From a virus, in IMG/VR virus record IMGVR_UViG_3300027795_000039, positions 32,001 through 96,000 of that record: a DNA stretch of 64,000 nucleotides; one strand, 5' to 3'. Positions 22,508 through 40,257 of this stretch are shown piece after piece. A program made the translations under genes and the position numbers. How positions within the stretch are numbered: position 1 is the stretch's first letter; the number at the start of each line of letters is the position of its first letter. Below the pieces are notes generated by a model. The model was not told the origin of the DNA. It worked only from the letters and a program-made list of their open reading frames with translations, and did not search any database.

Positions 22508-23836
22508 TTACACGTCATTATCTGGCATAACAACACTTAGGTTTACTGTTCCGTCTGCATCCACACTATCTACACGATACGTGGTTCCTCGAGGGAGGAT
22601 ATGCTCCTGTACTCCCTTATCACCGTTTACCATGTTGTACCCACGTGGTATGGTAATTTTCATCACGCGAGGAGTACCAGGTGTTATTTTCAAATCAACG
22701 AGTGGTGATTCAGTTTGCCCAGGCTGCAGTTGACCAGCGCGCGCGTAAGCAAAATTAGTCGCTTCTTCTTTGCTTTCAGTCGTTGATCCAAATGCTTTGT
22801 CGGTGAATTTCATACCTGGTTTAAGCTCAAAATCAGCGGGAGCTGACATTCCACGATACACCGTGGTATCTTGTCGTGCCCAGCTTTTAGCGATTGCACT
22901 ATCTAGGATCCCGATGTCACCGCTTACACCAGACAGATATGAACCGTCACCTCGTCGCAGTGCAGGGTTAAAGTAATCAGCGCCACCACTACGTGGTCTT
23001 TCGTAATCCTTTAGTAGGTACTTTTCTGGGTTTGATAGCTTACCAAATGGTGCATCTGGGTTATCTGCAACGCGTTTTGGCTCAGACAACGTCATTCGCT
23101 TAGACGCACCAGGACCAGGGATACCATCATATTTAATACTATTAGATAGTTTAAATGCTTGAGATCTTCTCAAACCAATCGGTGTATCTTTGTTGTTAAC
23201 GTGCCACGCTTGAGAAGCCAAATACAGATGATGATATGCCAGCGTTGGTGAACTATTATTAAGCGCTTCTTCTGCCTTAGGCAAGTGCTTACCGACAATT
23301 TTTTGCTCATCTTCTGGCAAGCTAGTGAATTGTTGTTGAATAGCTGGATCATTACTCAAAATTGAGAAGTGATCTGGTTCCACTTTATCGCTAACGACAT
23401 CTTCAACGTGATTAGCTGGTGTACCAATCGTTTTCTTTGGTGGTTTTACACCATCTTCACGTTGTGTTTTACCAGAATTAAAGTGACCTGCCAATGTTCT
23501 AACAGCAGTTTCACGGTCTTTATGAGATGAGGTATGACCATCTGAGTGTGTGGCCGTGTATTTACCGGTAATACCGCGGTCAACGCGACCAACACTGTAA
23601 CCAGACGGTTTATGTACCACGGTGCCATCACGTTTTACTGACAGATCGGCTGTTTTTAGCTTATCTGGTTTATCACCACAAGGAGGACGCACGCAGATGA
23701 AGCCGTGGATATACCCTTCAGCACCAACCTTAATGACATCTGGTATCACTGACATAAGTGGCATCAGTCGCTCAAACGCACGTTCATCTACCTGGCGCTT
23801 GGCGTCAGATAGATTACTGAACAGCGAAGCGATCAT
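22508..23836 (-). CDS. Tagged VIP2-like ADP-ribosyltransferase effector
   Basis: Same N-terminus and tag as 12908-14266; NPALRRG, VYRG, GSTT and QEHILPRG motifs. Confidence 0.82.
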   Translation of the reverse strand: MIASLFSNLSDAKRQVDERAFERLMPLMSVIPDVIKVGAEGYIHGFICVRPPCGDKPDKLKTADLSVKRDGTVVHKPSGYSVGRVDRGITGKYTATHSDGHTSSHKDRETAVRTLAGHFNSGKTQREDGVKPPKKTIGTPANHVEDVVSDKVEPDHFSILSNDPAIQQQFTSLPEDEQKIVGKHLPKAEEALNNSSPTLAYHHLYLASQAWHVNNKDTPIGLRRSQAFKLSNSIKYDGIPGPGASKRMTLSEPKRVADNPDAPFGKLSNPEKYLLKDYERPRSGGADYFNPALRRGDGSYLSGVSGDIGILDSAIAKSWARQDTTVYRGMSAPADFELKPGMKFTDKAFGSTTESKEEATNFAYARAGQLQPGQTESPLVDLKITPGTPRVMKITIPRGYNMVNGDKGVQEHILPRGTTYRVDSVDADGTVNLSVVMPDNDV

Positions 23837-23842
23837 GATGCC

Positions 23843-24640
23843 TCAATTATTCATGCCGATGTTGAGCGCCTGGTGGAGAGTGGGGATGAAGGAGTTGTTG
23901 TCGATGGAAGCGTGGGTGATGCGATGAGTACGATAACCTTTTTCAAGATGATATGTATCGCGTTTTGCATCATGTACCCGAGCCGAATGAGCGGTGTGAG
24001 CTAGACCATCGATTTCGATGTCTAGATTACATGATGGAATAAACAAATCTATTTCGTGACCGGTATCGATGTAATGTGGATCATATTCGATACCAATTTC
24101 ATCTAGATATGTCGCTACAATTGACTCATACGGATACAGTGGTGTATTTTTAAGCAATTGAAGCATGCGTTGCTTCGCTTGCTCACGATGCCCTTCACGA
24201 TCCCAGTGATACAACGGTTGATTAGGATCATCCCAGAGTCGGCGAGCGATTTCTGCTTGTTTTTCACGCTCTGCTGGGTCTTCGTACCGTTTGATCATCA
24301 TCTGACGCTGCGGTTCACGCATCTCAGGATTATTACGGTAGCTTTCTCGACCTTTCGCCTGAGCTGCACGAAATGTTTCAGTTTCACGGAACCGTCGTTG
24401 CGCCTCGTGCCATGCTTCTGATTTATTCGCGCCGTTAGAACCTTGTTTTTGGACTTCAACACCGGCATTAACGAGCAATTCTCGTGCTCTCCAATATTGG
24501 ATATCGTACAGCTCACCGAGCCTGCTTAGACTACCAGTGCGTTCATAATCAGCTTGAAGCTGTTCTCTACTAAGAGCAGACGCCGCCAGAAAATTTTGTT
24601 CGATTTCCTGGCGGCGCTGCTTACCACGATTATTTCCCAA
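23843..24640 (-). CDS. Free-standing DUF559/Vsr-like (EDxHD-type) endonuclease
   Basis: IDLF...IEIDGLAH...HDAKRD...GYRTHRI; paralog of the intron ORF 27253-28068; upstream TTTCCA-N17-TATAAT. Confidence 0.78.
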   Translation of the reverse strand: MGNNRGKQRRQEIEQNFLAASALSREQLQADYERTGSLSRLGELYDIQYWRARELLVNAGVEVQKQGSNGANKSEAWHEAQRRFRETETFRAAQAKGRESYRNNPEMREPQRQMMIKRYEDPAEREKQAEIARRLWDDPNQPLYHWDREGHREQAKQRMLQLLKNTPLYPYESIVATYLDEIGIEYDPHYIDTGHEIDLFIPSCNLDIEIDGLAHTAHSARVHDAKRDTYHLEKGYRTHRITHASIDNNSFIPTLHQALNIGMNN

Positions 24641-24716
24641 TTAACTGGACTCTTGTGGGATAATTTGGCTCACCAAATTATTATACCATAGAGAAATGTC
24701 ATTGGAAAATAATATA

Positions 24717-27700
24717 TTATGAGTATGGCGTGGTGTCCGATACTTGACAGTAAACTTTGTTACCAGTAAAATACTGGGCTAAGTCGTTTCCGCTTAGCTC
24801 TACGTGTTTCCACGCAGCTCAGACTCTCTCTTCATCTCGTTACACGAGAGCATCGTACATAGTCGTTGAACCTTCCCATCGCTTTCGCAGGTGGGCTCGG
24901 CTGCTGATTTTCCCTACTACCAGCTTCTCAAACCATCACGCTCATGTTTTCACATCACGTTGTGGTGCTGATATTTAATGGGAGGTTCCAGCAATTCTCG
25001 ATGTTATTGCCCGTTTCTCGCGAAACGGCGACCCTCACATTGTCGAAAGGCCTTGTAGAATTCCGGAGTAGAATGGCGCGTAGCTGACGAGCGCTCCATA
25101 GCAAGCTGTTACTACATGATTACTCATGCGACCAGATCGTTTCCGTCTGGTTCTCATGATTTACCATCTCATGAGATCGGACTGTCTCTTGATCTGCGAT
25201 ATTAACCACGTAATGCCTCGTAGCTGATATCATAACACAGATCCGGTACATACAGTCTCTGCACGCTGGTAGGCATTACCAACGCTCAGGATTCCCTATT
25301 ATAATGCAGGTAGGGTTCCCTGAACAGTACCGATTCACTTATTCTGTTACCAGAATAGTGCCCCTAATAAACGAGGAACAATGAATATCGGAAGGACGCG
25401 TCAATTACAGGCCACGCGATACTAACATAATCCTGGACGCCTTTTTGTTACTTAATTGAGCCATTATAGCTGCAATTAGAATTGGTCATTTCTGCCAATT
25501 TCTTACTATCTCCAGTAAGAACAGAGCACATCTTCATCCTGTTTCCAGGAGCCACGTGCATGCTCGTTGAACCTTCTCGTCATCATATGATAGGCGAGCT
25601 CGGCTGCTGATTTTCTCTGTCATTAGTTTCTCAAACCATCACGCTCGGTTTTTCAACTCACGTTGTGGTACTAATGCTTACCGAGATGTTCCAGCAATTC
25701 TCGTGGTTTATCATTACTCGTTACCGAGTATGGACCCGCTAATTCAGGTCATTTCCCAGGCATTCAGTATTGTTAAGTGCATATTAATACGCACTGCTTA
25801 GTCATTTCTGCTAAGCTCTGCATGTCTCCATGCAGCTCAGCCCATATCTTCATCCGTAAAGGACGCACCGTACATGGTCGTTGAACCTTCCTGTCGCTTT
25901 TTAAAGCAGGCAGGCTCGGCTGCTGATTGCCCCTGCTAACGCATTCTCAGGCATTCGCGTTTGCATTTTCATGCTACGCTGTAGCTGCGTTAGGTGGTAC
26001 GGGTTTTCCAGCAATTCTCGGTGTTTTCACTCACTCGTTACCGAGTGAGGCGCCAATTTTTACTTAGCGACGTTCGTCCACGTCTGCGGCAACTGATACG
26101 TTTGCAGCAGTGCGGTGCCTTGCGTAAGCCACGGGTGAACGACGAGGTTAAGGATAGACCGGGTAATCGGGTTCTGGAACTGCGAAACCGCCGCACCGAT
26201 CTTAACGCCACCAACATCAGGCTGGTCAAGGAACAGCCGGTAGTTCGTGGCTGCACCCTGGCTGATGATGTCGGTGGAGAGGCGCATGAGGTCGCCACCG
26301 TCGCCGACGATTTCCGCCGGGTCAGCACGGAACGCGCCTGGGTTGGTGAAGACGGATTCCCACAGTCCATCCAGCGCCTGGTAAATCGCGTTGTAGGAGA
26401 GATGGGTGCCGACATTCGGGTTGTAGTAGCCACCCTGCCACCCGGATGGGTAGACACTGGAGGTGGCTGACTTACCGGTCAGCGTCGGGATGATGCCTTC
26501 CATCCTGGTGTTCGCGCCGGTGCCAGTGTCGGTCGTCGGAGCGGTGGTGCCGATGGTTGGAATCGCACCCTGGAGCGTATAACGGACACCACCAACACCG
26601 GTGGCCATGCGGTACTGGTTACCCGCGCCCGTGGTGGTGCTGGCATAGATGTTGTACTGCAGCCCCGCATTGACGTATGGGATGGTAACGTCAACAACGC
26701 TACCAGTCGTCAGGGTGATGGAGCTGTTGGCGCTGCTGGCAGCCGTTTCGCCGTAGTAGTTCGTGGCGGTGACAGTGACGTACAGCGTGCCTGAGGTTGG
26801 AGAGAGTGGAGTTTCATTGGAACCTGCGGTACGAAGAGTGCAGGTTGGAGCGGATGGAGTTGTTAGCTTGACGCTGGAGTGGGAGAGCATTGCATATTCT
26901 TCGCCCCATTTTGTTACTCATCACTTACGTGATGGGGCACGTTATTTCTACGTGCCTCTGCAGGTTTACCATACCAGCAGTTCGGACTGTCTCTTAATCC
27001 GTGGCTAATCATGCATGTCGCTTCACATAAATTATCCGTAGCGGATTCGGTACATACAGTCTCTGCACACCATAAAGCGTTATGGTGCTCACGATTCCCC
27101 AGTAACATGGTGGGGTTCCCTGAACAGTACCATACATCTACACAATTACTTGCGTAGCGGACCAGCGATGATCATCATCTCTTGCAAGAGAATCAGGGAT
27201 GCCAATGCACTTACATCTTCGAACGGAGTTGTTACTTCCTAATAACTGAGAGTTATTTACTCTCATTGTCATCATCAGGAGAGCAGGTCATTTCTGCCTG
27301 CTTCTGCATTTTTTCCATCAATGCAGACCGGACTATATCATCGTCACTTTTTCGTCTACCAACTTGTGCCGACCGTAGAAGTCCATACGTACGTTGAGGT
27401 GAGCGAATTGTACATTCTGGGTTTTCTTCCGCTGGAATGCTGAGTGATCTAACACATTCATCCGCATGAGCGAATATGTCTTCAGCTGCGAATCTTACAA
27501 TTTCTATCCCAGAATCACGTATCTCTCGTGATCGCTTTACGTTGTACTCTTCCATAACACGATCTGGCTTAGCATCAATTTCGATAGCGAGAAGCCGGTC
27601 ATGAAGAAGTACATCAACGTAGTATTTACCACGTAGTACGATGGCATTTGAGGTAAATGAAACTGACGCTCGTTTAAGAGCATCTTGCAATTCAGCTTCA

Positions 27701-29848
27701 GCGGGCGGCAAGTAGTCAACACCAGTTGGTGTTTCTACAGGCCGAAGCCATTCTTTACGTCGTTGCCACTGAGCGAGAGCAATTTCACTGAGATTTTCTT
27801 TCCATACTGGATCATTCCAGAATTTTCTCTGTGATTCATACCACGCTTCAGTATGACGAGAACCGTTACATCCACGTTTCTGGATTTCGATGCCAGCTTC
27901 TACGAGCCACTTGCGTGCCTCGCCATAGTTAACACCGTATTTTGCGCCAAGCTTTCGCAAGCCGCCGGTTTCTTCGTAATCCTGTTGAAGCTGTTCTTTG
28001 CTAAGTGATGTGCTGCGTGTAGTCTCTACGGAGTCCCCAGGCTCTGGGGTTCCCTCGGTATTGTCCATTAATTTTATCCTACCACATGGTAGGGAGAGGA
28101 GTCCACCGATATAGCAGCATTGTCATCTGCCTGTTACCAAGCAGCGGGGCCTCGAAGATAACTTTTAGTAATAGAAAGTTACTCTCTGTTAACCCTGGCC
28201 GGCGAATTGCGCCAACCACGAAAGCGCTTCGGTCAAACCGAAGAAACGGTCATTTTGTTACTCATCGTTTAAAAAACGATGGGACTAGTCATTTCTGCTA
28301 GTCTCTACGTGTTTCCACGCAGATCAGACTATACCATAATCTGATGTAAATCAGACTCCGCGCGTCTAGTCGTTACGGACTCGCCAATCACTGGATGCAA
28401 TTGGATTGCCTCGGTATTGTCCACATAACCACTGATTTTCATCAATGCGAAGGAGTTTCACCGATACAGCGCGGTTTGCACTCACACATTACTGCATGAG
28501 GCCCCTACCATTCTTCATAGCGAGGGAACGTTCAAATCTACTTCCGTCTGCGAGCCAGACGGCGGTAGATTCATGGGCCAGTTCGTCGCACTCATGGTCC
28601 CAGAGTTTTGTACCAACTCTGGTATACTTATATCGACGACCCCTTGACCACCAGTTTGTGATCCACTGATGCCCGTGAACACCTTCGCTTGCCGTGCGGT
28701 ACCTTGACCAGCAGGACGAGGAAGCTTATTACGAAACACCGTATACACTGGATTGTGCTGTTACCTTCACGATCACTCGTGACGGGCTGGTCATCTCTGC
28801 CAGCCTCTTACGCTTTGACGTAAGACCAGACCATATCTTCGCCCGCCTCAGCGGGGTCGCGTGCATGGTCGTTGAACCTTCCCATTCTCATCCCGAGGAG
28901 TGGGCTCGGCTGCTGATCATCCCTACCACGTATTTCTCAAGCATTCGCGCTCATGTTTTCACATCACGCTGTAGCATACGTGTCTAACAGGAGGTTCCAG
29001 CAATTCTCGCGATTTAATCACGCTCATTACTGAGCGGAGATCCCTCCACTTGAGATCAGCCGCGAAGGTGCGACACTACTTCGCATTCAAGTGGAAGACA
29101 CACGCGTTACCGCGTGAGGACCCCATCGCAATGAAAGGTCGAACGGAACAAGGCCGGACACTGATCCAATGCCAAGTGCTAATTGTTACTCATCACATAG
29201 TGTGATGGGCCTGGTTGTTTCCACCAGACTCTGCAATTTTACCATCATTGCAGTTCGGAACGTCTCATGATCCATAAACGTTGTACTGTAGCATCTCAAT
29301 ACGCGATTCATCATGGATCCAGTACATACGTTCTCTGCACTACGATAGATGCCATCGTAGCTCAGGATTACCCATAATATGGAGGGCTTCCCCTGAACAG
29401 TACTGTTATCAGCTACTCGTTACCGAGTGGCGGGGCCACTTGACCCAGCAGTGAAACTTTTGGCAACTTCCGCCCCACCCGGCATGCTCGCCAGCAGCTT
29501 CTGGATCTGCTCAACAGGCGACGGGGTGTTTAGCGCAGTTGAGAGAAAACCTCTTTGCGCTAGGAAATCTGGACTCATACCCTTAACAACACTCGGGCGG
29601 TCCGTCAGACCTTGGTAGATCGACGTCCTGAGATCCAGCGTTGCCTGTGCTGATCGCATCAGGATTTCGCCTGGGTCGCTCAGCGGCTGGTTGAGGCCCT
29701 GGGCGTAGGTACAGCCCTTGACCAGGGTGGGCATACGCGACTTGATAACGTCGCTTACTGAGCCGGAGCGGTGTGCTTCGACTGCAGCCTCCCGTCCCGG
29801 GAGGCTAAGGTCGGGTCCAATCGGGACCTCGACGGTGGTGGTAGCCAT
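24717..29848 (-). CDS. Major capsid protein, spliced from 11 exons (608 aa)
   Basis: Exons 29848-29443, 29178-29136, 29075-29053, 28753-28523, 28250-28192, 27223-27171, 26906-26066, 25764-25746, 25440-25374, 25101-25048 and 24747-24717 join into a 1827-nt open frame. Capsid identity is inferred from synteny after the prohead protease. Confidence 0.82.
24748..25047 (-). ncRNA. Group I intron I10 (300 nt, IC1-like type)
   Basis: P AATTGCTGGAA, Q AATCAGCAGCC, R GTTCAACGACTA, S AAGAGAGAGTCT; U.G at the 5' splice site and terminal G. Confidence 0.9.
25102..25373 (-). ncRNA. Group I intron I9 (about 272 nt, IC3-like type)
   Basis: TTCAGGGAA, AATCCTGAGC, GTGCAGAGACT and AAGAGACAGTCC; the 5' splice site may be 3 nt upstream. 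Confidence 0.88.
25441..25745 (-). ncRNA. Group I intron I8 (305 nt, IC1-like type)
   Basis: P/Q/R/S elements with compensated P7 (GAGC/GCTC); P1 GACCT/GGGTC. Confidence 0.9.
25765..26065 (-). ncRNA. Group I intron I7 (301 nt, IC1-like type)
   Basis: AATTGCTGGAA, AATCAGCAGCC, GTTCAACGACCA and AAGATATGGGCT; P10 AAT/ATT. Confidence 0.9.
26907..27170 (-). ncRNA. Group I intron I6 (about 264 nt, IC3-like type)
   Basis: TTCAGGGAA, AATCGTGAGC, GTGCAGAGACT and AAGAGACAGTCC; 5' splice site uncertain by 3 nt. Confidence 0.86.
27224..28191 (-). ncRNA. Group I intron I5 (968 nt, IB-like type) with an endonuclease ORF
   Basis: TATCGGTGGA, AATACCGAGG, CCGTAGAGACTA and ATGATATAGTCC; 9-bp P10 (ATCTTCGAG with exon TTCGAAGAT). 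Confidence 0.92.
27253..28068 (-). CDS. Intron-encoded DUF559-like endonuclease or maturase
   Basis: YYVDVLL...LAIEIDA...KRSREIRDSGIEIVRF; AGGA site; overlaps the intron core elements. Confidence 0.75.
   Translation of the reverse strand: MDNTEGTPEPGDSVETTRSTSLSKEQLQQDYEETGGLRKLGAKYGVNYGEARKWLVEAGIEIQKRGCNGSRHTEAWYESQRKFWNDPVWKENLSEIALAQWQRRKEWLRPVETPTGVDYLPPAEAELQDALKRASVSFTSNAIVLRGKYYVDVLLHDRLLAIEIDAKPDRVMEEYNVKRSREIRDSGIEIVRFAAEDIFAHADECVRSLSIPAEENPECTIRSPQRTYGLLRSAQVGRRKSDDDIVRSALMEKMQKQAEMTCSPDDDNESK
28251..28522 (-). ncRNA. Group I intron I4 (272 nt, IB-like type)
   Basis: TATCGGTGAA, AATACCGAGG, CCGTAACGACTA and ATGGTATAGTCT. Confidence 0.9.
28754..29052 (-). ncRNA. Group I intron I3 (299 nt, IC1-like type; apparent terminal A)
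   Basis: AATTGCTGGAA, GATCAGCAGCC, GTTCAACGACCA and AAGATATGGTCT; P1 GATCT/GGATC. Confidence 0.88.
29076..29135 (-). ncRNA. 60-nt core-less group I-like mini-intron I2
   Basis: P1 GACCT/GGGTC, 7-bp P10 (TGCGATG with exon TGTCGCA), GTAA-loop P2 hairpin and terminal G; no P/Q/R/S elements; in-frame TGA. Confidence 0.7.
29179..29442 (-). ncRNA. Group I intron I1 (264 nt, IC3-like type)
   Basis: TTCAGGGGAA, AATCCTGAGC, GTGCAGAGAACG and ATGAGACGTTCC; P1 GGGT/GCCC; P10 CAAGTG/CACTTG. Confidence 0.9.
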
Positions 29849-30057
29849 AATGGCCTTTCATTTTTGGTTACGCGTGATTTTCAGCGACGCGCGGCGCGCC
29901 GCTTGCTAAGAAGTGTCGAGGAATGTTGTCGTCATGGTTATTATCCTTACTGGTTTACGCCAGCCTCAGCCAGCAACAGCACGCTTCATCGTGAAGCGTG
30001 CTGCTTTCATTCTGATGCGGCATCCCGCCGCAGTTAACCAGACCCGCTGGTTAAAGT

Positions 30058-30687
30058 CTATTCATCATCTTCATCGTCTTCATCATCGTCGCCATACTGT
30101 GATGATGAATCGTCATCTTCATCAAAGTTTTCATCCAGCTCATTACCATATGGCATTGGCTCATATGACTTATCACCATGCTCAAGGTCCTGGTAACCAT
30201 CTTCAGCACCGTGCTTCTCGTCATAACTCATTTCATCGTGAGACTTCCAACTAGCCTGTTCACGCGAGATTTCTGGTGTTGGTTTATAGGCCTTACCAGT
30301 AACACCGGAATACATCTTCTTAGCGCGATCAATGGTATTGTCACCAGCTGTAGTGGTAGAACGCGATCGTACACCGTGCCCAATTGCACGATTAAGGTGA
30401 TTCACAGCTTCATCGTGCTTACCAGCATCCAGCGCATCAGCAGCTTTACTAAATGCCACTCCAGCCTGATGATAGCGAGTAATATCACCGCCGTGATAAT
30501 CGTTGTCTTCTGCTTCGCTGTGCATCTTATCGCTCATGGAGCGTAGTTTTGTTGAAGCCTTACCAATGCTACTAGCATCATCAGTACCAGCGCCGACTTT
30601 TATCCAGCCGTGAATGTAGCCCTTCGGGCCAACCTTAGTGACATCTGGTTCAGCAACGTTCTTCGTAACTTCCTGTTCCGACTTCAT
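30058..30687 (-). CDS. Small tagged protein with an acidic tail, probably leaderless
   Basis: TGGTATAAT 6 nt before ATG 30687; VTKVGPKGYIHGWIKV. Confidence 0.75.
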   Translation of the reverse strand: MKSEQEVTKNVAEPDVTKVGPKGYIHGWIKVGAGTDDASSIGKASTKLRSMSDKMHSEAEDNDYHGGDITRYHQAGVAFSKAADALDAGKHDEAVNHLNRAIGHGVRSRSTTTAGDNTIDRAKKMYSGVTGKAYKPTPEISREQASWKSHDEMSYDEKHGAEDGYQDLEHGDKSYEPMPYGNELDENFDEDDDSSSQYGDDDEDDEDDE

Positions 30688-30799: not shown

Positions 30800-31486
30800 T
30801 TACCTGGTGCCACTAACCTCGGCCACAACCGCCTGGATGTGTGAGAATGAAGCCGCGAATCCGGGATGCAGCGGCAACATCTGCGCCTCAGCTGCGGTAA
30901 CCCATTTGGTTCCAACTGATTCACTGGCTGTAGTCGCATCTGACGCGTCCGGCGTAAACGTGGCAAGTGACTCAACCAGAACCGTGTGGTACTTCCAGCC
31001 ACCATAGTTAACCGTGATCACCGCGGTGTGCTCGAGGTTGCTGATGTGAGTTGAGCCAAGTTCTTCAGCAGCCTCACGCTTAGCACCCTGGATGGGTGAT
31101 TCACCGTAGTGCAATCCACCACCTGGCGTGCTCCAGGTACCAGATAGGTTCACACATTCACCACGCTGCTGCAACAGGTAGCGAACTTCGTCATCCGCTC
31201 CGTGGTTGTAGATGATCAGGCCTGCCGCACCATCGATACCGAAGTGTGACCTGCCGTGAACATCTGGCACGTAGTGCTCGCTGCTGTTGTCTGGCGGACC
31301 GCCTCGACCCATCTTGCCGAGCGTGGCCTTGATACCCGTGGAGAACCAGGCTGACGCCTTGTTGCCATCCACGTCGATGATCCTGCCGTACCGGTAACGC
31401 GGGTGGAAGATGATGCTGCCGGTTACCTCGCCAGTACGGCGAACGTACACCCAGCCGTTGATGCGCCTGTGCTTGATGATCCTCAT
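30800..31486 (-). CDS. NUDIX hydrolase
   Basis: Nudix box GGGLHYGESPIQGAKREAAEELG; upstream TGGTATACT and CAGGAACAGGAA. Confidence 0.85.
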   Translation of the reverse strand: MRIIKHRRINGWVYVRRTGEVTGSIIFHPRYRYGRIIDVDGNKASAWFSTGIKATLGKMGRGGPPDNSSEHYVPDVHGRSHFGIDGAAGLIIYNHGADDEVRYLLQQRGECVNLSGTWSTPGGGLHYGESPIQGAKREAAEELGSTHISNLEHTAVITVNYGGWKYHTVLVESLATFTPDASDATTASESVGTKWVTAAEAQMLPLHPGFAASFSHIQAVVAEVSGTR

Positions 31487-31969: not shown

Positions 31970-32051
31970 ATGACTATTATACCACGTATGCAGCCGAGTA
32001 GCAGCTTCATCGTGAACAGATCTAAGCTGGTATGGATCATACGACACGGTA

Positions 32052-37062: not shown

Positions 37063-40000
37063 TCAGTGGGCACTGAAATCCTTTTGGGTTACATAAACGT
37101 TCATGATGCCATCTGCTGTCTGCACTTTGTCCACTGAGTACCGGCCACCAGTAACCACTTCACCTTCATTGAACAAAGACAATTTTGACAGACTCAAACC
37201 CTTCGCCCCGGGAGAGGTATGTATAATTACTTTTGTCTTCCCCGGTTCACCAGTCTTATCTGCGAAACTGGCTGCCCACTCTGGTTTAGTCGTCCAGGAC
37301 GCGACTGGCATATCCATGGTTTGACCAGGTTGGAACATCCGCTTCGCATCGGCATCACCCAACGTAATACCACGCGATATCTCACCATGCTGCACATCAG
37401 CATCTTTGTCAACCATACCGAGGAACTTGTGCGCTTCCTGGCAGCCATTCCCACAATTTTTCGGTGGTGTGTTCGTGGACAACAGCCGGTGAAGCTCGTG
37501 AGTAAAGTCTTCACCTTCTTTGCCGTGCATGTATGAGTTGTTTGAGTACCGGAATGAGTTGGACCAGATACTAACGAGGTGTTGCTTTGTGGCCGTTGAC
37601 AGCTCACCCGGCTTCGGTACTCGTGCCAATGCAGCCGGTGTGGTTGTTCCCGCAATAGCCTTAACAGCCTCAGCTGGCGTCTTATGGGTGGTGGTTGTAC
37701 CATCACCATGCGTGGCTTCAAATGATCCACCTGGCATATAACGAACCGCGCCAACTTCAGCGCCAGTTTTCTTGCTAACGACTGATCCATCATCATTAAG
37801 TTTGATGTCTGCCGATTTTACAGATGATGCTGGTGTAGCTGTCTTCGGTTTACCAGCTGAATCACTAGATGCGATAACATCTGAACCAGCTACCTTCTTC
37901 GGCTTCGCCTCAGTTGCACCACTGTGATCAGCTGACTTAGGCAGTTGCGTCAAATACACGTGACGCTGGCCTTTTTTATCAACCTCATCGCGGTCAACTC
38001 TAAAATTGCTATTGCGATTCAAAATCAACTCAGATTCCGTGGGTACAAATGATGCAGAACCTGGTTTGACAACCTTCGTGCCCTTTGGCACAGTGATATG
38101 CATAATAGCTGAATCAACACCTTCACCGAAGTTTTTCTCGGCTATGTCCGGTTCAGCACTCGTACTAACGTACGCTTTATCGCTAAACGTTTTACCAACG
38201 CTCTTACCAGCTGGACCAAGTAGCTGACTCGCCTGCGCCATGCCACGGTGAACGGTGATATCTCGATTAAGCGGTTTCGCACTGTCAAATGCACTATCGA
38301 TGCTTTTAACATTTGGACTGTTGACACTGTCAATGTTACCACCACGCAACTGACCATTAAGAGAATAGTAGTCATTAGCGGTGTAGTTGCTAACAGCTTT
38401 TACGGCTGCGGGTGACGCACCAGACGCAGCAACATCAGACATCTTCTTATAATCAGCAAGCGCATTCGCCGCAGCTGATTTTTTATCGTCAACCACGTTT
38501 GTTGGTTTAGCGGAAGTAACCGCTTCACTCGGTTTAGCGACAGCCATCGTGGACTTTGCACCACCACGCCGCGCGATCTCATCTTTAACCGACTTATGCG
38601 CCCGCGATACCTTACCGTCTTTACCAAGCTTCGTCGCACGGTTCGCGAATGCCTGGTCAGCGGCCTTCAGATCGTCATCTGAAGCATCGTGGACGATGTT
38701 CTTCCGGCTAGCAGCCGTTGGTGTTTTAGTCAGCTGATCCGCGAATTTACTAGTCGTATTAGTGGTTTTTGATGTATCTGATGGTTTTACGGACTCAACG
38801 ACTTTATCATTATCACCATGTGGTAGCACCGTAACATGAATCTGCCGGTTTCCATTTTTATCTAGCTCATCAGAATCAACATGAAACTTGGCGTTAGGCG
38901 CCATCGTATACTCATGAACCGCATTCCTCGACTTATTCAGTGCTTGACGTGATGATGAGTCACCAGTGATCAGATCTTTTGCTTTCAGCATCTGAGTACC
39001 TGAAGGAGCATGCACGGTAATATGTGCAGCATCCTTACCCTGGTACATATTTGCGATACCACCGATTGACGTCATGGACGTAAAGCCTTTATCCTGGAAC
39101 GTCTTACCATTCATTGAGCCAACGGGACCGAAGATATCATTGGCACCGTGTACCCCACGGTGTAGCAATGTAGGTTCTTCGGTTGGTTTTGCCTTGCCAA
39201 TCAACTTTGTTAGCCCATCAACAGCTTTTTGTTTACTAGCTGGAACTTTATCGTTTCGCAATGCTTTATTCGTAGCACCGAATGCAGAACTGTAATAAAC
39301 CGATTCTGCGTTCTTCTTATCCGCGTCTGAAATCCCACCTGGTACTTCACCATAATGCGTGGTATCCCAGAGTGGTATGCTGGTTAGTTCTTTGCCAGTA
39401 TCAGGACTTGGTTTTTCAGTTGCTGGTTTCTTACCACTAACAGCTGGTTTAATACCACTTTGCTGGACAGCTGGCTTCTCAACACTCGTAACCGGTTTTT
39501 TCGCCTCATCTGCACCATCGAAATCACGCTTCGTCTTACCGCTGTTGTAATGACCCATCAGTGCGCGGACAGCGGTTTCTTTATCTTTATGCGACGAGGT
39601 ATGACCATCGGAGTGAGTCGCGGTAAATTTACCTGCGGCGTTCTTATCAACGTGGCCCACACCGTAACCGGATGGCTTGTGCAGGATGGTGCCATCACGC
39701 TTAACCTGCAGATCATCACGTGATATCTTACCTGGCTTCTCACCACAAGGAGGACGCACACAAATGAAGCCATGAATATAACCCTCAGGGCCACCGAGCT
39801 TAATGAGATCCGGCTGGCTCTGCCAGAAAAAATCCGGCACCACCGACTTGGTCTTCGAGTGTTCAGCCTTTAGCTTCTCCCACTCAGCCAGCGCCTTACT
39901 AGCCGCAGCGCGAACCTCCGGTGTCACCTTACCACGACCAGATGCCCAGCGTTTCACCGCGCCAATGGCAATGGAAATAGCCTCGGACTCAGTGTGACCT

Positions 40001-40257
40001 GACTTAATCAGTGAGTGAGCGATGTTCTGGATGTACGCGGGGAGCTGTGCTTTTTTATCTCCCCAAAGACCGTGAGTACCGAGTAGGTGATGCATCGTAG
40101 ATAGTGTTGCGGTTTCAGCAGATTTAATAGTATTACCGGTGTTAGCACGCTTTTGATGCGCTATGTGAAGTTTATCCCGCTGTATCGACGTCATTCCAGC
40201 TGGGATAATGACACGGTTCCCAGCCTGGTCTTGCCCGGATACCTCTATGGTTTCCAT
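37063..40257 (-). CDS. Tagged polyprotein with three ADP-ribosyltransferase domains and a ChaB-like N-terminal domain
   Basis: LHRG..TSMT..HEY; VHRG..VSTS..ESE; ISRG..ASWT..EGE; tag LIKLGGPEGYIHGFICVRPPCG. Confidence 0.82.
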   Translation of the reverse strand: METIEVSGQDQAGNRVIIPAGMTSIQRDKLHIAHQKRANTGNTIKSAETATLSTMHHLLGTHGLWGDKKAQLPAYIQNIAHSLIKSGHTESEAISIAIGAVKRWASGRGKVTPEVRAAASKALAEWEKLKAEHSKTKSVVPDFFWQSQPDLIKLGGPEGYIHGFICVRPPCGEKPGKISRDDLQVKRDGTILHKPSGYGVGHVDKNAAGKFTATHSDGHTSSHKDKETAVRALMGHYNSGKTKRDFDGADEAKKPVTSVEKPAVQQSGIKPAVSGKKPATEKPSPDTGKELTSIPLWDTTHYGEVPGGISDADKKNAESVYYSSAFGATNKALRNDKVPASKQKAVDGLTKLIGKAKPTEEPTLLHRGVHGANDIFGPVGSMNGKTFQDKGFTSMTSIGGIANMYQGKDAAHITVHAPSGTQMLKAKDLITGDSSSRQALNKSRNAVHEYTMAPNAKFHVDSDELDKNGNRQIHVTVLPHGDNDKVVESVKPSDTSKTTNTTSKFADQLTKTPTAASRKNIVHDASDDDLKAADQAFANRATKLGKDGKVSRAHKSVKDEIARRGGAKSTMAVAKPSEAVTSAKPTNVVDDKKSAAANALADYKKMSDVAASGASPAAVKAVSNYTANDYYSLNGQLRGGNIDSVNSPNVKSIDSAFDSAKPLNRDITVHRGMAQASQLLGPAGKSVGKTFSDKAYVSTSAEPDIAEKNFGEGVDSAIMHITVPKGTKVVKPGSASFVPTESELILNRNSNFRVDRDEVDKKGQRHVYLTQLPKSADHSGATEAKPKKVAGSDVIASSDSAGKPKTATPASSVKSADIKLNDDGSVVSKKTGAEVGAVRYMPGGSFEATHGDGTTTTHKTPAEAVKAIAGTTTPAALARVPKPGELSTATKQHLVSIWSNSFRYSNNSYMHGKEGEDFTHELHRLLSTNTPPKNCGNGCQEAHKFLGMVDKDADVQHGEISRGITLGDADAKRMFQPGQTMDMPVASWTTKPEWAASFADKTGEPGKTKVIIHTSPGAKGLSLSKLSLFNEGEVVTGGRYSVDKVQTADGIMNVYVTQKDFSAH

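Follow-up and report, generated by a model that had tools for sequence, protein, structure and literature searches.

Nine probable group I introns and a core-less insert in the predicted major capsid gene of an uncultured soil phage

How can a phage make its major capsid protein from a gene that is broken into 11 pieces? The question is raised by a stretch of 64,000 nucleotides (hereafter the window) that covers positions 32,001 to 96,000 of IMG/VR virus record IMGVR_UViG_3300027795_000039; the whole record measures 132,026 bp, is classed as a provirus with an estimated completeness of 93%, and belongs to an uncultured 132-kb soil phage. On the minus strand of the window, from 29848 to 24717, lies a gene of 5132 nt in which 11 exons alternate with 10 intervening sequences (coordinates are window positions throughout, unless a locus such as L007 is named). 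Our answer, which we consider very probable on the sequence evidence, is that this is the phage's one functional gene for its major capsid protein, invaded by nine group I introns of three families and by one core-less derivative, and that its pre-mRNA would be spliced to give an HK97-fold open reading frame (ORF) of 608 aa.

The anatomy of the gene had been outlined in an earlier note made from the letters of this DNA, and tblastn searches and enumeration of the junctions upheld its count of exons and intervening sequences, with boundaries right almost to the base. Exon 1 (29443-29848, 406 nt) opens with the ATG at 29848 and encodes residues 1-135 plus 1 nt, and is followed in gene order by exon 2 (29136-29178, 43 nt), exon 3 (29053-29075, 23 nt, encoding VAPSRLI), exon 4 (28523-28753, 231 nt), exon 5 (28192-28250, 59 nt), exon 6 (27171-27223, 53 nt), exon 7 (26066-26906, 841 nt), exon 8 (25746-25764, 19 nt, encoding NAWEMT), exon 9 (25374-25440, 67 nt), exon 10 (25048-25101, 54 nt) and exon 11 (24717-24747, 31 nt, stop included). 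The shortest exons are thus of 19 and 23 nt, as the note had said, and when all exons are joined computationally their 1827 nt form a single stop-free ORF of exactly 608 aa plus stop, again as it had stated. The intervening sequences, which measure 264, 60, 299, 272, 968, 264, 301, 305, 272 and 300 nt in order, occupy 3305 of the 5132 nt of the gene. The expectation that ORF callers would miss the capsid gene is also borne out, since the ORFs listed for the window across this region are mere fragments of 142, 77 and 276 aa. The mosaic is visible in base composition: the kilobase with the largest exon has a G+C content of about 0.58, as against about 0.45-0.46 for the adjoining intron-rich kilobases.

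Comparison with uninterrupted homologues fixes the exons independently of any RNA feature. Used as tblastn queries, six such homologues are each collinear with 11 separate pieces, including the tiny VAPSRLI and NAWEMT exons, and they lack the gap that is seen here between VPFDL and VAPSRLI. The spliced product is collinear with intron-less homologues, aligning in one high-scoring segment pair with homologue P0003 (54% identity over residues 24-608), and is 55% identical to homologue P0002. For the junctions, we enumerated every donor and acceptor placement that restores the expected peptide and checked each against 14 uninterrupted relatives from viral contigs. At all ten junctions the spliced product has the length and the near-identical residues of these relatives. 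The exon ends in U at ten of ten, which agrees with the earlier note, and the intron ends in G at nine of ten, in the placement that gives the length and residues of the relatives. Junctions 6 and 9 (J6 and J9) each permit more than one U/G placement, from which the relatives' MMM-GEEY and SLFL-YGAL, respectively, pick one. At junction 3 the sole placement that yields Tyr, the residue found in 14 of 14 relatives, puts an A at the end of the intron; in the related locus L012 the orthologue of this intron has a G at the aligned terminal position, and the invariant P7 G-C pair of its family is unchanged in intron 3 (3' end at 28754-28765) despite the terminal A. Read from the sequence, all nine full introns close with [G/T]TAAC and a tail of 6-12 nt, much as had been noticed before.

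That the long intervening sequences are group I introns was tested with the Rfam covariance model RF00028, whose gathering score is 50 bits. Five matches in the window exceed that score, all on the minus strand within 24800-29067, and they correspond to introns 3, 4, 7, 8 and 10 at 50.7-69.5 bits; a permissive search of 24400-30100 adds a sixth, intron 9, at 48.8 bits. Searching the whole genome returns six matches, all of them in the capsid gene and none elsewhere. The nine long introns fall into three related sequence families. Family A, in which every member is recognised by Rfam, consists of introns 3 (28754-29052, 50.7 bits), 7 (25765-26065, 69.5 bits), 8 (25441-25745, 52.5 bits) and 10 (24748-25047, 67.6 bits). 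Family B, compared pairwise only, consists of intron 4 (28251-28522, 55.4 bits, with a U/G junction) and the ORF-bearing intron 5 (27224-28191). Family C consists of intron 1 (29179-29442, with a U/G junction), intron 6 (26907-27170) and intron 9 (25102-25373), and introns 1 and 6, both Rfam-negative, share 76% column identity with intron 9. The two halves of introns 4 and 5 were aligned separately because of the ORF in intron 5, and show 73% column identity in the 5' half of the core and 69% in the 3' half; the 816-nt ORF occupies the place of a short hairpin in intron 4, and the stems downstream differ by paired changes. Homology to their siblings supports the assignment of introns 1, 5 and 6 to group I.

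Covariation speaks for the same assignment, with the proviso that the structures were derived by RNAalifold from the tested alignments themselves, P7 being added by hand, which somewhat favours them. In family A, for which four introns of the window were aligned with six from relatives, 96.7% of cells are paired, whereas shuffles give 73.5% and sliding the partners gives 29-37%, and compensatory changes occur in 48 of 70 pairs, a level reached by none of 500 shuffles. Family C, with three introns of the window and four from relatives, gives 95.9% against 72.5%, and compensatory changes in 49 of 69 pairs, again with none of 500 shuffles as high. The P3/P7 pseudoknot is part of both structures, and P7 is kept across the alignments, intron 1 showing a double compensatory change. 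Sequence profiles of families A and C, applied with nhmmer, match the 3' core in each of the other full introns, and have no further matches in the 132 kb.

The elements that would define the splice sites are less uniform. A G.U-closed P1 of 3-5 bp can be drawn for ten of ten introns, and a P10 for all ten, when an offset of 1 nt from the first exon base is allowed and the same rule is applied to 2000 shuffles. The number of shuffles (of 2000) in which P1 and P10 together are as good is 66 for intron 1, 5 for intron 2, 92 for intron 3, 16 for intron 4, 0 for intron 5, 420 for intron 6, 141 for intron 7, 105 for intron 8, 358 for intron 9 and 79 for intron 10; the combination beats 95% of shuffles in five of the ten (introns 1, 2, 3, 4 and 5). 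In intron 5 the P10 alone, at 10 bp, is reached by none of 2000 shuffles. The claims of the earlier note on this subject therefore stand in part. Its P1 and P10 pairings are drawable throughout but exceed 95% of shuffles in half of the introns; the covariance-model search it proposed recovers five introns above the cut-off and a sixth at 48.8 bits but leaves introns 1 and 6 and the whole of intron 5 undetected; and its description of the inserts as group I-type is supported for nine full introns in three families but fits the core-less insert only in part. Taken together, the comparisons support the reading of the nine long inserts as group I introns. Inteins can be set aside, as the inserts have stops in all frames and form structured RNAs, and so can group II introns, the matches being to group I.

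What the gene encodes was approached through its relatives. Used as the query of an exhaustive profile search, the 276-aa fragment finds 154 relatives at E <= 0.001, and among the 150 listed 50 are 540-640 aa long and called as single ORFs. The fold was examined by proxy: homologue P0002, modelled with AlphaFold from a 50-sequence alignment (predicted local distance difference test score 78.6, predicted template modelling score 0.69), matches 106 solved PDB chains at E <= 0.001 in Foldseek, the best being the Pa223 capsid at 5e-11, with the SPO1 and SU10 capsids also leading the matches and HK97 itself included. Against BFVD the same model matches 151 viral models, and 'major capsid protein' accounts for most of the top named ones. 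The HK97 fold anticipated by the earlier note is thus found in a modelled homologue standing proxy for the spliced protein, and by this route the gene product is predicted to be an HK97-fold major capsid protein. Sequence families are less informative: the sole match is phrog_13692, of 'unknown function', NCBIfam gives no match to the family, PHROG scans of five upstream ORFs give no clear portal or protease call that would place the gene in a head module, and neither megablast of the 5.3-kb region nor tblastn of exon 7 finds a match in the INPHARED phage collection. The gene is single-copy in the 132 kb, and a second capsid gene was accordingly rejected. Against six relatives, the ratio of nonsynonymous to synonymous substitution rates (dN/dS) is 0.09-0.18.

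In proposing how such a gene could be expressed, we need to account both for the nine full introns and for an insert that has no catalytic apparatus. We suggest that the 5.1-kb stretch would be transcribed whole as one pre-mRNA, that each full intron would fold into a group I core and remove itself by two transesterifications, and that these removals would jointly restore the 608-aa HK97-fold ORF; that splicing occurs, and how efficiently, we infer. The exception is intron 2 (29076-29135), an insert of 60 nt that is exactly 20 codons long, in frame, contains a single TGA and is lacking in homologues. It has a U.G-closed P1 of 5 bp (GACCU/GGGUC), a P10 of 7 bp to the 3' exon (P1 and P10 together being those reached by 5 of 2000 shuffles), a P2 hairpin of 6 bp capped by a GNRA-type GUAA loop, and a terminal G. 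Over about its first 38 nt, the insert aligns with the P1-P2 domain of the family A siblings, and the core of about 240 nt is absent; neither alignment to the siblings nor Rfam, in which it has no RF00028 match, reveals a catalytic core P3-P9. As only the parts of a substrate are present (P1, P10 and terminal G), we do not file it as an autonomous group I intron.

The same layout recurs in one independent relative, L012, where an insert of 53 nt and an exon of 23 nt accompany a full intron with a score of 65.7 bits (L035 is the same phage as L012, at 99.99% identity). The window and L012 loci share one fold, with minimum free energy z-scores of -3.2 and -6.1, which comprises P1, P2, a long helix between the tail of the insert and the first 12 or so nucleotides of intron 3, and an inner helix in which the 3' end of the insert pairs with exon 3. 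Between the two loci there are two compensatory pairs in the P2 stem, one in the tail helix (A-U versus G-C) and one in the inner helix (C-G versus U-A), the last being possible because the codons concerned, TCG and TCA, are synonymous. When the tail of intron 2 is compared with the 5' ends of the nine full introns, the best partner is intron 3 at -18.2 kcal/mol, a value reached by 7 of 2000 shuffles, with a runner-up at -11.8; the corresponding pairing in L012 is worth -17.7 kcal/mol and is reached by 14 of 2000 shuffles. This pairing and the P1/P10 of intron 3 are mutually exclusive, because they need the same nucleotides of intron 3.

From these two sequences we draw our favoured proposal for intron 2, to which we give about even credence: that it is a natural, non-autonomous group I intron, a deletion derivative that would offer its P1-P2 substrate domain to the core of intron 3, 23 nt downstream, and be excised by it. 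Intron 2 would block the P1 of intron 3 until removed; its removal, coming first, would then free the guide sequence of intron 3, such that one ribozyme would carry out two splicings in order. Two coincidences of sequence may be recorded here. Introns 1 (29442-29436) and 3 (29052-29045) open with the same 7-8 nt, CAAGUGG, as a result of which the tail of intron 2 also pairs, more weakly (-11.8 kcal/mol), with intron 1. Also, exon 8 (25746-25764) and exon 2 share the ending GACCU (at 29136-29140 in exon 2), and introns 8 and 2 share the guide GGGUC, so that the intron 8 ribozyme could in principle recognise the exon 2/intron 2 site; this could be a risk of exon skipping or a source of help in trans. 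A metagenome scan added no second independent copy of the mini-insert. Two stretches emerged from a DNA pattern scan of viral contigs, L012 and L032, and the latter was discarded as a chance match with no capsid homology.

The 60-nt insert admits of other explanations. Its length of exactly 20 codons, in frame and with a single TGA, might suggest that it is dealt with at translation, by ribosome hopping of the kind seen in T4 gene 60 or by read-through of the TGA. The bypass in T4 gene 60 has matched take-off and landing codons and an adjacent stop, and the gap need not leave the mRNA. Matching codons of this kind, and a stop right after take-off, are lacking in the window and in L012 alike, and the insert carries P1, P10, a sibling-like P2 and a terminal G. 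Moreover, the L012 counterpart, at 53 nt, is not a multiple of three and so cannot be read through; by hand count from the sequence, reading into it meets a TAA inside the hairpin loop. We regard a translational solution as very improbable. An autonomous minimal ribozyme, resembling the degenerate group I introns of 56-81 nt in fungal small-subunit ribosomal DNA, is a somewhat better candidate, although still an unlikely one. Those introns are described in PMC3160393 as having P1, P7, P10 and a pairing with the 3' exon, and one of them, PaSSU, is reported there to splice in vitro; in intron 2, too, there are a P1, a P10 and 7 bp of pairing with the 3' exon. However, neither a P7-like element nor a G-binding site was seen in intron 2 (no dedicated search for P7 was made), its tail pairs instead with the guide region of intron 3, at the strength and rarity among shuffles given above, and its first 38 nt or so are simply the P1-P2 domain of its siblings. 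A rival closer to our proposal is that intron 2 is served by any sibling core, not by that of intron 3 in particular.

Two explanations concern the gene as a whole. It might be a decaying pseudogene, in which at least one interruption is irremovable (either intron 2, which has no core, or intron 3, which ends in A) and the record represents a defective provirus. The classification of the record as a provirus, the missing core of intron 2 and the absence from intron 3 of the terminal G that its L012 orthologue has are all compatible with such decay, but no exon is damaged or out of frame, the residues at the junctions are the same as in relatives or nearly so, the dN/dS values are low as given, and the genome holds no second capsid gene. 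Decay also gives no reason to expect what is seen in L012, which keeps the mini-insert, the 23-nt exon and the intron layout with compensatory changes, and a Coxiella group I intron without the canonical omega G is in print, to judge from a title in the reference list of PMC3428280. We therefore think a pseudogene improbable. The mosaic might, alternatively, be an artefact of assembly, given that the record derives from a metagenome and that the introns are paralogous repeats; of all the alternatives this seems to us the most remote. In a second assembly, made with a different assembler from the one public DNA run that contains this stretch, one contig of 14,058 nt at a depth of about 10 spans 24400-30100 with 0 differences, although that run may be the source sample and the check is not independent of the data behind the record. 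The intron paralogues are merely 64-76% alike, too divergent for collapse or chaining, and introns of the same families occur in the same gene of relatives from other samples.

Several observations weigh against a functional, spliced capsid gene and should be set beside those that favour it. The terminal nucleotide of intron 3 is A instead of G, which would slow exon ligation, as expected from work on Tetrahymena. Because intron 2 has no core, at least one step would require a hypothetical mechanism. Searched singly, introns 1 and 6 give no RF00028 match at E <= 10, returning chance snoRNA-type matches only, and intron 5 as a whole gives none either, its 3' flank alone scoring a non-significant 8.4 bits (E 9.1). 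For introns 6 and 9 the evidence from P1 and P10 is weak. The model that shows the capsid fold is of homologue P0002, not of the spliced product itself, and the family is unrecognised by Pfam and by PDB sequence search. Synonymous divergence is saturated (dS 1.5-2.9), so that dN/dS speaks for past selection and not necessarily for present function. Lastly, no public RNA run holds the 5.2-kb stretch, and only one public DNA run does, a soil metagenome that may be the source.

The same gene is interrupted in relatives, to differing degrees. Forty-eight related loci collapse to 26 distinct sequences, of which 16 are uninterrupted, seven interrupted and three too short to tell. L007, the closest relative, has six introns, the most in any of them compared with ten interruptions in the window gene; L008, L012 and the L025 group have three each, L022 and L044 have one, and L016 has at least one. 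Those of L012 stand at the J2, J3 and J6 sites of the window and that of L044 at the J9 site. In L007 the introns near J7, J8 and J9 (L007 7850-9190) are homologous to introns 7, 8 and 9 of the window, offset from the window sites by 7, 5 and 14 nt in a hand-read alignment; they look as if they had slid or been re-inserted nearby. Its sixth intron lies 8 nt before the end of the gene, leaving a last exon of 8 nt with the stop included. Where a script could resolve the junctions of relatives, U/G is among the best-scoring placements in eight of eight, one of them poorly aligned. Five junctions next to micro-exons were beyond the script, those of L007 being resolved by eye and the micro-exons of L008 and L025 placed at tblastn resolution. 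These last two loci have micro-exons of their own between two introns, at sites unused in the window: L008 6598-6624 (27 nt) and L025 4999-5028 (30 nt).

The capsid genes of this phage group, with none to six introns in the relatives, are an intron hotspot. Homing, together with spread inside the gene, is the most likely way in which the introns of the window gene built up, although the route is something we infer. Intron 5 is the only one to bear an ORF, at 27253-28068 on the minus strand, whose 271-aa product has the Pfam domains HTH_58 and DUF559 (Vsr-like nuclease) and finds no match in a PDB sequence search; we consider it a candidate homing endonuclease. The ORF begins in the core block shared with intron 4 and ends 29 nt before the 3' splice site, which means that coding sequence overlaps the ribozyme core at both ends. 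A free-standing paralogue of 265 aa lies at 23843-24640 on the same strand, 77 nt downstream of the capsid stop. It is 54% identical to the intron-5 ORF over the 65-aa N-terminal domain, and matches DUF559, the Pfam family MTES_1575 (below its cut-off) and PHROG homing endonuclease families; it has an HTH and a Vsr-like nuclease domain, and is a candidate homing endonuclease that would act in trans on the ORF-less introns. There is precedent for homing in trans by a free-standing endonuclease in the account of T4 mobE in PMC2790892. Plausible routes include homing, mobilisation in trans and the co-conversion of introns that lie close together. Elsewhere around the capsid region, two large flanking ORFs (22508-23836 and 37063-40257, both on the minus strand) have ADP-ribosyltransferase domains (Pfam ADPrib_exo_Tox; Alt-like in PHROG), and an ORF at 30800-31486 encodes a NUDIX hydrolase.

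Genes with many group I introns have analogues elsewhere. Fungal mitochondrial cox1 is a highly conserved protein gene that can hold many group I introns and very short exons, although its setting is an organelle genome with protein splicing factors and not a virus. Among phages, the closest parallel is the major capsid gene of the crAss-like Zeta group, described by Yutin et al. (2021, PMC7886860) as occurring in five fragments. As it is described there, group I-type introns repeatedly interrupt a phage capsid gene and defeat ORF callers, the find is metagenomic, and that gene is likewise presumed to be spliced. It differs in having four interruptions against ten here, in belonging to a gut lineage in which many genes have introns, as many as 14 in a genome, where all those detected here are in one gene, and in that no core-less insert figures in the description of it. 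In other accounts, the genomes of Jug phages carry an average of 18.5 introns and their terL is broken into two to three fragments (PMC12880540), Bastillevirinae have up to three introns per gene (PMC11878797), and single introns in the capsid genes of Cluster J mycobacteriophages have been shown to splice (PMC3706429). The background assumed in the earlier note, that phage introns number one to a few per gene, must be qualified in view of the crAss-like and Jug cases (PMC7886860, PMC12880540), and its description of ten as extreme holds in degree but not in kind, as the published multi-intron phage genes indicate. We found no phage gene with ten introns in the literature, where the most was five fragments, although the supplementary tables on crAss-like and Jug phages may list more; the gene described here carries more interruptions than any phage gene that we found published.

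Micro-exons and unusual intron ends have parallels too. Orf142 of Staphylococcus phage Twort (Landthaler and Shub 1999, as related in PMC10136302) is a phage gene with several group I introns that are paralogues of one another, two of them separated by an exon of 23 nt. In that account there are three introns, all with cores, whose splicing was shown experimentally, and cross-talk between neighbouring ribozymes causes exon skipping, whereas here we propose that cross-talk rescues a core-less insert. In the 23S ribosomal RNA (rRNA) gene of Coxiella burnetii (Raghavan et al. 2007; PMC10136302), two group I introns are said to flank a 34-nt exon, and one of them lacks the canonical omega G. The tiny exon and the natural intron without a terminal G recall the micro-exons and intron 3 of the window gene, although the setting as reported is a bacterial rRNA gene with two introns. 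For intron 2 the likeness is to the engineered trans-excision-splicing ribozymes and 'spliceozymes' (PMC2532722, PMC4094466), in which, by those accounts, a group I core excises a core-less internal segment and joins the flanks, as we propose here. The engineered systems are presented as laboratory constructs that act in trans through the ribozyme's own guide sequence, whereas intron 2 brings a P1 and a P10 of its own and is linked to its neighbour in cis. The fungal degenerate introns are similar in size, in P1, P10 and 3'-exon pairing, and in missing most of the core, but as described in PMC3160393 they lie in eukaryotic nuclear rRNA genes, keep P7 and have no full intron alongside; intron 2, by contrast, keeps P1-P2 and pairs with its neighbour. 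Our literature search found no group I intron in nature that lacks a core and relies on a neighbour, the only such systems being engineered, and what could be new in kind among these findings is a core-less insert whose link to the following ribozyme is conserved.

The scale of the interruption is itself of biological interest. To have ten interruptions in the late gene with the heaviest expression would extend the tolerance of a phage for selfish introns well past the published cases, and the phage burst would hinge on a single transcript completing ten RNA processing events; splicing might even provide a gate for the timing or quality of head assembly. Because ORF callers see fragments only, the capsid of this phage group goes unannotated. 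If our proposal for intron 2 is true, it would be a natural counterpart of engineered trans-excision-splicing and a template for RNA engineering, and the core-less insert would be an intron living off the catalyst of another intron, a new tier of parasitism among self-splicing elements.

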